A program made the position numbers and the translations under genes. Below are positions 17,627 through 20,128 of a stretch of DNA of 64,000 nucleotides, piece by piece. The notes beneath the pieces are model-generated. The model was not told where the DNA came from, ran no database searches, and was given only the letters and a program-made list of their open reading frames with translations. The stretch spans positions 288,001-352,000 of IMG/VR virus record IMGVR_UViG_3300022719_000071. The stretch is one strand, 5' to 3'. The stretch's first letter is position 1, and each line of letters begins with the position of its first letter. The DNA comes from a virus (taxonomy: Duplodnaviria; Caudoviricetes).

Positions 17627-17965
17627 ATGAGCACTGAAAACGAAAATTTAGATGATGACGGATCCCTGGTAGTGGATCGTCCACCGGCAGAAGAGCGCAA
17701 GGATCTTGCGCCCCCGCCGAAGTACGCAGTAATGCTACTAAACGACGACTTCACTCCGATGGACTTCGTAATGGCAGTCCTCGTGAAATTCTTCTCGAAG
17801 TCTCAAGAGGAGGCTGAGAAGATCACCATGGAGGTACACGAGAAGGGGGAGGGGTTGGCCGGTATCTTCCCGAAGGATATCGCAGAGACCAAGGCGTCTC
17901 AGGTGTGTCACATTGCGCAGTCCAATGGACATCCGTTTAGGGCCGACGTGAAAGGTCTCCACTAA
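17627..17965 (+). CDS. clpS: ATP-dependent Clp protease adaptor ClpS
   Basis: YAVMLLNDDFTPMDFV...FSKSQEEA...MEVHEKG...AETK...HPFR. Confidence 0.95.
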   Translation: MSTENENLDDDGSLVVDRPPAEERKDLAPPPKYAVMLLNDDFTPMDFVMAVLVKFFSKSQEEAEKITMEVHEKGEGLAGIFPKDIAETKASQVCHIAQSNGHPFRADVKGLH

Positions 17966-17970
17966 ACCTA

Positions 17971-18001
17971 TTGACTTTACGGAGAACCTGCCCTATATAA
18001 T
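17971..18001 (+). promoter_or_regulatory. sigma70-type promoter for the ro60 leader RNA
   Basis: TTGACT-N17-TATATA overlapping TATAAT (17996-18001); predicted +1 near G18008. Confidence 0.8.
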
Positions 18002-18007
18002 ACACAA

Positions 18008-18164
18008 GACCTGGGTCGAAGCTGTTTCGTTATCGTAATTGGTACATTAAAAGCGGAACAGCAGAACCTTATCCGGGGCTTAATTTTTGAAGGCTGCGAG
18101 CCGAACGACAGATCATTATCGTTCATGTATAAACGGCGAGATGGTTCGATTCCATCATAGGTCT
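18008..18164 (+). ncRNA. Y-RNA-like, tRNA-mimic non-coding RNA upstream of ro60
   Basis: GUCGAAG (18015-21) Ro-motif; helix 18021-29/18054-62; T-arm GAUGG-UUCGAUU-CCAUC (18140-56); acceptor-like 18008-13/18158-63. Confidence 0.75.
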
Positions 18165-18213
18165 GGCGACACGTTAAAATTGGTCTGGCACCAACTTGTT
18201 CGCAACCAAGAAG

Positions 18214-18255
18214 AAAAAGCCCGGAGGGGACGCCCAGCGCCCCTCCGGGCTTTTT
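18214..18255 (+). terminator. intrinsic terminator between the ncRNA and ro60
   Basis: AAAAAGCCCGGAGGGG / CCCCTCCGGGCTTTTT, 16-bp stem ending in U-tract. Confidence 0.9.
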
Positions 18256-18299
18256 CGTTTCTACAACATACCCGATTGGACATCGGGGAGGAATACATC

Positions 18300-20084
18300 A
18301 TGGCAAACTACGCAAGAATTTCGGGCAAGACCCGTCGAAACACTCATCAGACTTCACAGACGAAGGCAATCCCTGGTCGTGAAATCGAGATGAAGAAAAA
18401 TCCGGCTGGAGGCGTGAGCTTCAAGTTGGACGACTTCGCTCGTCTACAGCGATTCATCATCCTCGGAGTTGAGGGGAACAGCTACTACCAGAGTCAGAAG
18501 ACCCTGGTGAATCAGAACGTGAGTTCTCTGGAGCGCTGTCTGGACGCTGATCCGTTCCGTGTCATTGACATGGTTGTGGACATTAGTGTGAACGGTCGTG
18601 CCTTCAAGCAGGACGCTGGACTCTTCGTGTTAGCTGCTGCCGCTTCTTTCAAGGGTGGCGTGCGCTCCGGTCGCAAGAGCCCGCCGAACCGCAATCGATT
18701 CCAGTACGAGGAGAACTACCAGCAGGCTCTAGCCGAGTATGAGGCTTCCATCGTCATCGTGGACGAGGAGCACGCAGTCAAGGTTCGTCAGTACGCACTG
18801 GAGAAGCTGCCACAGGTGGCTCGTACCGGTACGGCGCTGTACACGTTCGCTGAGTTTGTACGTGGTCAGCGTGGATTCGGTCGCAGCCTGCGTCGTGCAT
18901 TCGCAAAGTGGATGACTGACAAGCCGCTAGACAAGCTGGCCTATCAGGCATGGAAGTACAAGAGCCGTAACGGCTGGACGTACCGTGACATCATGCGCCT
19001 CACGCACCCGGTAACAGACGAGCGTGCACGTTCAGACGTGTTCGGATATATGGTGAAGGGACAGCTACCGGAAGGTGCTGACCTGAGCAACCCGGCCCTG
19101 GCACAGATCGATGCGGCTGAAAAGCTGCTGAAGATCATGACCAACCGTACTAACGTGACCAAGCCGGTCGTCAAGGAAGCTGTCAAGCTCATCGTTGACC
19201 ATCGCCTGACTCACGAGGCTGTTCCGTCCGAGCTTCGCAAGAGCCCAGAGGTTTGGGAGGCTCTGCTGGAGAACATGCCGCTTCAGGCTGCTGTCAGCAA
19301 CCTGGGTGTCATGACCAGCACTGGTCTGGTCAAGCCACTGTCGAAGGCAGAGCGAAAGATCGTGGAGATGCTTACCAACGTCGAAGCAATCAAGCGTTCT
19401 CGCATGCACCCGATGCGGTTCTACCTTGGTTCCAAGGTCTACGGCAATGGTCGTGGCGTGAAGGGTAGCCTGTCCTGGTCGCCAAGCCAGAACATCATGG
19501 ACGCTCTGGATGGTGCGTACTACGCATCCTTCGGTAACGTCGAGACGACTGGCAAGACACTGGTCATCGCTGTCGATGACTCGGGTTCTATGGACTGGGC
19601 TAACACTTCGGTTCCGAACACTAGTCCATCGGAGATTGCTGCGGCAATGGCGCTGGTCACGTACCGCACTGAGCCGAACAGCGTGCTGATCGGTTATTCT
19701 GATGGTGTTCGTGAGATGAAGGTGTCTCGTACACGTTCTCGCATCGACAGCATCATGAAGCATGTCGGTCATGGCGGTGGAACCAACACCACACTCCCGG
19801 TGCAGTACGCCTGGAACAACAAGCTGGACGTTGATGGCATCGTGTCCTACACAGACAACAACACCTGGGGCGCATGCTCTCGGGGCTGGAACAGTAATGG
19901 ACATGTTACCCAGTGGGTGAATAAGTACGTGGATCGCTTCGGTCCAATGCGCTTCATCAACTGTGCGATGGAGGCAAACAGTATCACTGATACTGATGCC
20001 AAGAATCCGTACATGTTCGAGCTTGTCGGTGTTGACGCCAATACCCCACGCATCATTAGCGAGTTCCTTGCTGGTAACCTGTAA
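18300..20084 (+). CDS. rsr: Ro60/TROVE-domain RNA-binding protein with vWA domain (594 aa)
   Basis: NPAGGVSF...RLQRFIILGVEGNSYY; KYKSRNGWTYRDIMRLTHP; RMHPM; MIDAS VDDSGSM; GGGAGG SD before ATG 18300. Confidence 0.93.
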   Translation: MANYARISGKTRRNTHQTSQTKAIPGREIEMKKNPAGGVSFKLDDFARLQRFIILGVEGNSYYQSQKTLVNQNVSSLERCLDADPFRVIDMVVDISVNGRAFKQDAGLFVLAAAASFKGGVRSGRKSPPNRNRFQYEENYQQALAEYEASIVIVDEEHAVKVRQYALEKLPQVARTGTALYTFAEFVRGQRGFGRSLRRAFAKWMTDKPLDKLAYQAWKYKSRNGWTYRDIMRLTHPVTDERARSDVFGYMVKGQLPEGADLSNPALAQIDAAEKLLKIMTNRTNVTKPVVKEAVKLIVDHRLTHEAVPSELRKSPEVWEALLENMPLQAAVSNLGVMTSTGLVKPLSKAERKIVEMLTNVEAIKRSRMHPMRFYLGSKVYGNGRGVKGSLSWSPSQNIMDALDGAYYASFGNVETTGKTLVIAVDDSGSMDWANTSVPNTSPSEIAAAMALVTYRTEPNSVLIGYSDGVREMKVSRTRSRIDSIMKHVGHGGGTNTTLPVQYAWNNKLDVDGIVSYTDNNTWGACSRGWNSNGHVTQWVNKYVDRFGPMRFINCAMEANSITDTDAKNPYMFELVGVDANTPRIISEFLAGNL

Positions 20085-20095
20085 CCAGTATCATA

Positions 20096-20128
20096 AAGTA
20101 GAGGGGTAGATTTACTACCCCTCTACTT
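20096..20128 (+). terminator. hairpin after ro60
   Basis: AAGTAGAGGGGTAG-attta-CTACCCCTCTACTT, 14-bp perfect stem. Confidence 0.75.

Follow-up and report, generated by a model that had tools for sequence, protein, structure and literature searches.

The window analysed here is a stretch of 64,000 nucleotides from a 360-kb IMG/VR virus record. It contains a ro60 gene (18300..20084, + strand), which codes for a protein of 594 amino acids with TROVE and Ro60 vWA domains (Pfam PF05731, 2e-27, and PF25045, 1.4e-27) and is followed by a terminator at 20096-20128, identified in a terminator scan. The neighbour on the 5′ side is clpS (17627..17965, + strand; Pfam PF02617, 4e-30). The gap between the two genes is 334 nt long and non-coding; it folds with −95.4 kcal/mol (z = −5.1 compared to shuffled sequences) and contains two Y-like RNAs, which together with ro60 form the unit described below. 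ClpS is also encoded upstream of this Y RNA-ro60 unit in several relatives. The synteny with clpS holds for this phage family, and several relatives carry in addition clpP and a NAD kinase gene, which hints at a module for proteolysis and RNA quality control. The G+C content of the ro60 region (18001-20000) is 54.6% compared to approximately 45% in the flanks, which suggests that the region was acquired from a higher-GC source. The public runs listed as containing the locus are three DNA metagenome runs, all from one study, and no listed run is recorded as RNA.

A protein search in metagenome assemblies yielded Ro60 homologs with 44-78% identity, roughly 25 of which (44-57% identity) come in addition to those of the loci used here. 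Ten homologous RNA loci were recovered (L010-L014, L122, L178, L180, L181 and L183), with Ro60 proteins that are 48-78% identical, and these loci have a common layout of promoter, RNA, intrinsic terminator and ro60. Two loci with a Ro60 of 46-47% identity (L140 and L141) do not show the Y RNA-terminator-ro60 architecture. A blastn search of the locus against GenBank phages gave no match, tblastn against the same phages found only Ro60 at ≤35% identity, and a scan of IMG/VR with the protein returned only relatives with approximately 35% identity that are not accompanied by a homologous RNA. The pattern GAGCCGAACG..GTTCGAYTC matched 120 metagenome loci, among which L122 is the sole homolog; the others have no Ro60 nearby, including L083, which gave a partial nhmmer match. 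The pattern ATCCGKGGCT..GAGCCGAACG produced two chance matches in IMG/VR.

A sigma70 consensus promoter can be read directly between clpS and the RNA (17971..18001, + strand). It consists of TTGACT (17971-76), 17 nt and TATATA(AT) (17994-18001), and transcription is predicted to start at approximately 18006-18009. The sigma70 promoter scan overlooked this promoter because the hexamer ends in A. TTGAC(T/A)-17-TATATA(A/C)T is located at the same place in nine of the 11 loci (the window, L010-L014, L122, L178 and L183), and L180 and L181 have variant −10 boxes.

Alignment and RNAalifold analysis showed that two tandem Y RNA modules are located upstream of ro60. The first one, Y1 (18006..18081, + strand), is a simple Y RNA module according to the RNAalifold consensus, its compensatory pairs and the pair table. 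Stem P1 of Y1 is formed by strand a (18006-16, ...CCUGGGU) at the 5′ end and strand b (18071-81, AUCCGGGGCUU), the GNCGAAG motif follows as GUCGAAG at 18015-21, and stem P2 comprises 18021-31 / 18052-62. The conserved core of P1 is GGGU 18013-16 / AUCC 18071-74, which extends to 18010-16 / 18071-77. An earlier note on this DNA had reported that segment 18067-81 overlaps with its 5′ end the 3′ strand of the Ro-binding helix. The contact with the helix holds, but the register GGGU/ACCU does not, since ACCU (18066-69) is not conserved among the relatives. AUCC is invariant and the pair C18011-G18076 of the window covaries with A-U in relatives; therefore the segment is the 3′ strand of P1 itself, which is more than an overlap. 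A U-rich run after the Y1 stem (AAUUUUUGA, 18082-18090) is present in the window, L012 and L013 and absent in L010 and L011. This run could act as a weak early stop and give a short Y1-only RNA.

The second RNA, Y2 (18092..18207, + strand), was identified with RNAalifold and is probably of the YrlA type with a putative tRNA-like domain, having the motif and the T-arm found in YrlA (PMC4201824). Its stem P1′ consists of GG 18092-93 / CC 18206-07 and GCGAGC 18096-101 / GUUCGC 18198-203, the latter accompanied by a bulged C. The motif GCCGAACG is located at 18100-07, stem P2′ at 18109-15 / 18181-87 and the T-arm GAUGG UUCGAUU CCAUC, which is conserved in the relatives, at 18140-56. Both RNAs share two features with bacterial Y RNAs: they carry GNCGAAN0-1G, the Ro60 contact motif as proposed by Chen et al. 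2014 (PMC4201824), which in Y1 is located on strand a, and a Ro60 ortholog in the same orientation lies within 4 kb. The RNA ends only 44 nt upstream of ro60, and in all ten relatives ro60 is likewise found on the same strand within 4 kb. A comparison of the window with Rfam gave 0 family matches at the gathering score and only chance-level terminator-like matches at E values up to 10, and ARAGORN found no tRNA in the non-coding stretch.

Y modules were also observed in other arrangements. In L181 (926-1450; L182 is identical) three simple Y modules precede the tRNA-like Y2 and the terminator, and a full tRNA gene with encoded CCA lies between the second and the third module. The pattern GGGTCGAA..GTTATC..TTATCC (L185-L331) detected Y-type modules in many bacterial genomes, among them Mucilaginibacter, Sorangium, Longimicrobium and Fluviicola, and all 36 pattern matches with a Ro60 gene at the locus have this gene on the strand of the Y module. 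Matches to this generic pattern are noisy and were left out as a comparator for the stem pairing described below. In Sorangium (L256, L257, L264, L267, L278, L287, L290 and L316) the Y module is located 40-110 nt 5′ of ro60 on the same strand, and a U-rich run comes immediately after its basal stem GGACGGGU.../...AUCCGUCC. From its sequence this Y stem looks like a terminator itself, and Ro60 binding to it could directly affect read-through.

An intrinsic terminator separates the two Y RNAs from ro60 (18214..18255, + strand). Here, the 5′ arm c, AAAAAGCCCGGAGGGG (18214-29), pairs with the 3′ arm d, CCCCTCCGGGCTTTTT (18240-55), over 16 bp, to which three further inner base pairs and a bulged A are added; the hairpin has a folding energy of −33.5 to −39.8 kcal/mol and is followed by UUUUUCGUUUCU. 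The U tract at 18251-55 continues with CGUUUCU. The 16-bp terminator described in the earlier note is thus present, with −39.8 kcal/mol, and a GC-rich hairpin with U tract occupies this position in 11 of 11 homologs. The variant G18226C, seen in DNA contigs of the source study, introduces a C-C mismatch into the terminator stem and corresponds to the state of L010; it is neutral for the alternative pairing of arm c discussed below. We also considered the terminator as a third mimic of the Ro-binding site and rejected this, as CGAAAG in L180 and L013 reads as a GNRA tetraloop and the bulged-C motif is missing.

The lack of an evident promoter in the 44 nt before the ATG, also stated earlier, agrees with the promoter scan, which found no sigma70-like site in 18256-18299. 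A T4-type late box is likewise absent from the spacer before ro60. In most homologs terminator and ATG are separated by 32-50 nt, which is too short for a promoter. Promoters of their own are common in jumbo phages, and ro60 might accordingly have its own start past the terminator, either at a phage-specific promoter that is not of the sigma70 type or at a processing site, and the terminator would be a full stop. This would be in line with the conserved U(G)GACAAC found directly 3′ of the terminator in most homologs, and with L181, in which a 90-nt spacer between terminator and ro60 contains a plausible sigma70-like promoter (TTGACT-17-TAGAGT). However, neither a sigma70-like site nor a late box was detected in the spacer of the window, most spacers are short, and an own start leaves the covariation between Y1 and the terminator, described below, unexplained. 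We regard it as very improbable.

The conserved sequence 3′ of the terminator, UUUCU(G)GACAAC, is found in the window (18256-18270) and in L011, L013, L014, L178 and L183. According to RNAalifold, the Shine-Dalgarno (SD) sequence GGAGGAA is paired with GUUUCU, the distal part of the U-rich tail, in all six close homologs, a predicted pairing that could damp translation of read-through transcripts. A further hairpin, CCCGAU/AUCGGG (18271..18287, + strand), lies just 5′ of the SD sequence GGAGGA (18286-91). It exists where the earlier note had placed it, but its overlap with the SD sequence amounts to only 2 nt. L011 has UCCGA...UCGGA at this place, a compensatory exchange of the outer pair, L013, L014 and L178 have CAGAA..UUCUG instead, and the hairpin is absent in L010 and L012. 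With this absence and the different small hairpins in other relatives it does not qualify as a conserved SD trap. The variant T18276C, again from DNA contigs of the source study, opens the closing pair of this hairpin.

The region of strand b (18067..18081, + strand; core 18071-81, the 3′ strand of P1) is a candidate antiterminator, as it is complementary to a section of the terminator 5′ arm (18217..18229, + strand). The earlier note counted about 13 bp between the two segments. We find 12 bp, split 3+3+6 by a single bulge and a loop of 2 nt, at −16.9 kcal/mol between 18067-81 (CCUUAUCCGGGGCUU) and 18217-29, which confirms the pairing. When the 203 nt upstream were shuffled preserving dinucleotides, an equally good partner for the GC-rich arm was obtained in 22% of 1000 shuffles. 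The b:c complementarity in the window alone is not beyond chance, so any significance can come only from the comparison with relatives.

In this comparison RNAduplex predicts b:c in 11 of 11 homologs, with −9.2 to −15.6 kcal/mol and in most of them at least as strong as a:b. The inner half of the helix, UCCG/CGGA, is invariant and consequently uninformative for covariation. The outer half is GGCU:AGCC in most homologs, GGUU:AGCC (with a G-U pair) in L122, GGGU:ACCC in L180, GUUAA:UUAAC in L181 and GGUAC:GUACC in L183, and the ten homologous loci represent four diverged types of pairing. In the strand alignment of the 11 homologs, positions b8-b10 (18078-80 in the window) have a pairing partner in c in all 33 cells and in a in only 20 of them; b8 is found as G-C and U-A, b9 as C-G, G-C, U-A and U-G, and b10 as U-A and A-U. 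These positions are conserved or covary even where they are no longer paired with a. In a matrix of four lineages the cognate b:c pair is the best one in every row and column, and the sum of the cognate pairs (−51.6) ranks first of 24 permutations, the next best being −44.9. As an additional comparator set we used the 5′ arms of another 76 terminator-like hairpins from the phage genome. The cognate arm was in the top 1-4%, with 2/76 for the window, 0/76 for L180, 0/76 for L181 and 1/76 for L183; one of the two arms counted for the window is the minus-strand reading of its own terminator. Fisher combination of the four ranks gives approximately 1e-4.

In the Ro60 tree L183 is basal, L181 is placed beside the group of the window and L180 beside the L014/L178 group. 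Since the three variant lineages are thus apart, at least three independent compensatory events have to be assumed. The covariation as such is based on three or four diverged sequences and a strand alignment made by us. The alternative pairing between a Y RNA segment and the terminator 5′ arm is therefore borne out: all 11 homologs have it and at least three independent lineages show compensatory changes. As a:b and b:c share strand b, it excludes the Ro-binding stem; b:c likewise excludes c:d. Judged from these sequence comparisons, the b:c pairing is evolutionarily maintained. As another candidate for the main selected helix we considered a:d, in which the 5′ end of the RNA would pair with arm d of the terminator; this was rejected because its energies (−0.9 to −12.2 kcal/mol) are weak and inconsistent.

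An alternative explanation for the arrangement would be an ordinary sRNA terminator that leaks constitutively. A constant share of the polymerases would read into ro60 and b:c would be non-regulatory, either a remnant of a terminator that had arisen from the basal stem of a Y-type RNA or a side effect of both elements being GC-rich CCGG-type stems. The Sorangium modules, in which a Y stem and a U run lie 40-110 nt 5′ of ro60, suggest that a Y stem can also act as a terminator and may have undergone duplication; the chance-level complementarity in the window and the strength of the terminator, which dominates thermodynamically and kinetically (see below), also fit such a leak. On the other hand, if c were a remnant it should have ceased to follow b, but the two strands changed jointly at least three times, although the terminators are located at the same position and most have the same downstream motif. 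In addition, the cognate arms outrank nearly all of the 76 other terminators of the genome, and b8-b10 are kept or covary without pairing to a. We consider a mere leak unlikely.

Whether b:c could form during transcription was analysed by folding nascent transcripts that end 4 nt past c. In 10 of 11 homologs b:c (7-10 bp) replaces a:b in the nascent minimum free energy (MFE) structure, L122 being the one with an MFE fold that does not contain it, and the gain over the best fold with c unpaired is 6-11 kcal/mol. To pass from P1 to b:c, most homologs would have to overcome an estimated findpath barrier of 3-7 kcal/mol. The outcome is different as soon as d has been made: the terminator fold is then more stable by 6-15 kcal/mol in nine of the ten homologs evaluated, and the findpath barrier for d displacing b is only 2-8 kcal/mol according to the energy model. 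By these estimates the antiterminator does not live long enough to block the terminator. With a more stable terminator and a low displacement barrier an RNA-only antiterminator should be short-lived, and it would at best tune termination unless it is stabilised.

The exception among the ten homologs is L183, for which the MFE structure of the full-length RNA is b:c + a:d. This arrangement, here called fold II, could point to a post-transcriptional switch, in which the released RNA alternates between it and fold I, where a:b and c:d are formed. Fold II would join the 5′ end of the RNA to its 3′ end as in canonical Y RNAs, and its role would be in Ro60 loading, RNA processing or stability and not in the control of transcription. 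Consistent with this, a:d forms in most homologs when b:c is enforced, and the 3′ arm of L180 and L181 keeps the b-like motif (C/G)UU(A/G)UCC. However, the low and variable a:d energies given above and the preference for fold I in nine of ten homologs make such a switch improbable, and c:d has every feature of an intrinsic terminator and is located directly before a gene that lacks a recognisable promoter.

The explanation that we favour is a switch that would act during transcription. The region would be a single transcription unit of early-type sigma70 promoter, Y1, tRNA-like Y2, intrinsic terminator and ro60, in which four strands would compete: a, the 5′ end of Y1 with the Ro60-contact motif; b, the 3′ strand of the Y1 stem; and c and d, the two terminator arms. 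In fold I the Ro-binding stem a:b and the terminator c:d would both form and the Y1-Y2 RNA would be released. In the alternative fold c would be captured by b as soon as it has been made; since Y2 sits between b and c, its folding would bring both together within a linker of approximately 17 nt. The outer part of the Y1 stem, GGCUU, is poorly paired and could be the toehold. Pairing of b with c would delay or prevent closure of the lower terminator stem, and read-through into ro60 would be favoured. The most likely effector would be Ro60, which, bound to nascent a:b, would act as an anti-antiterminator lock. Because a:b would then be locked, an excess of Ro60 would raise termination, resulting in more free Y RNA and less ro60 mRNA. 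In this way the RNA:protein stoichiometry would be set co-transcriptionally by a four-strand switch that is conserved in ClpS-carrying jumbo phages.

That the layout represents an anti-antiterminator / antiterminator / terminator attenuation system before ro60, with Ro60 as the presumed effector, has in our judgement slightly less than an even chance. The more specific proposal, that Y1 is the cis sensor of the attenuator for Ro60 and that unbound Y1 leads to read-through and Ro60-bound Y1 to termination, is a tentative one and we consider it rather doubtful. That b:c alters termination efficiency, that Ro60 is responsible, and in which direction it acts are all points that we infer. Ro60 is reported to make most of its contacts with the 5′ strand and to be able to separate the two strands of the helix (PMC4201824, PMC12135203); binding consequently need not lock a:b, and the sign could be reversed.

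Autogenous control by an anti-antiterminator, an antiterminator and a terminator is established for the Bacillus subtilis rplJL leader and L10(L12)4 (PMC4538822), and autogenous attenuation for the infC leader and L20 (PMC1865079). Like the leaders responding to L10(L12)4, PyrR (pyr operon) and L20, the phage locus has three exclusive helices formed by four consecutive strands upstream of the gene of the regulator; the first helix contains the (here predicted) protein site and the last one is a terminator immediately 5′ of the coding sequence. It differs from them in that the proposed sensor is a free-standing Y RNA, the main product of termination, and not a mimic in an mRNA leader, and in that a whole second Y RNA of approximately 115 nt lies between b and c. 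Moreover, the predicted antiterminator is here fully overlapped by the terminator and much weaker.

Two Y-like RNAs, Yrl1 and Yrl2, have been described upstream of Ro60 in the Thermus phage phiLo (PMC12135203). As with these and other bacterial and phage Y RNAs (YrlA/YrlB, Yrn1), the locus has two RNAs immediately 5′ of ro60 on the same strand, GNCGAAN0-1G in both and a tRNA-like T-arm in one. YrlA/YrlB of Mycobacterium smegmatis are likewise located upstream of rsr and are part of one precursor. PMC4201824 and PMC12135203 describe no connection of Y RNA to ro60 that would act through a terminator or by autoregulation; the word "terminator" occurs 0 times in both, and neither of them explains how the levels of Ro60 and Y RNA are matched. 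A full-text literature search found no paper on rsr attenuation or autoregulation. The terminator link to ro60 proposed here, and an RNA that matches no Rfam family, set the locus apart from the bacterial and phage Y RNAs of these two papers.

If the switch works, read-through of one terminator would be a cis-acting readout of Ro60-Y RNA binding, and similar couplings between a Y stem and a terminator would be worth seeking upstream of bacterial ro60 genes. A T-box antiterminator is weaker than its terminator and works only when the bound ligand stabilises it. The antiterminator of the phage locus is also weaker than its terminator, and the terminator-favouring energies imply the same requirement for a stabiliser; unlike in the T-box, the proposed effector would stabilise the competing upstream helix. 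A working switch would be, to our knowledge, the first known case in which a free-standing partner ncRNA, as opposed to an mRNA mimic, is the sensor of an attenuator. The class of mechanism is known; a functional partner ncRNA as its sensor would be new.
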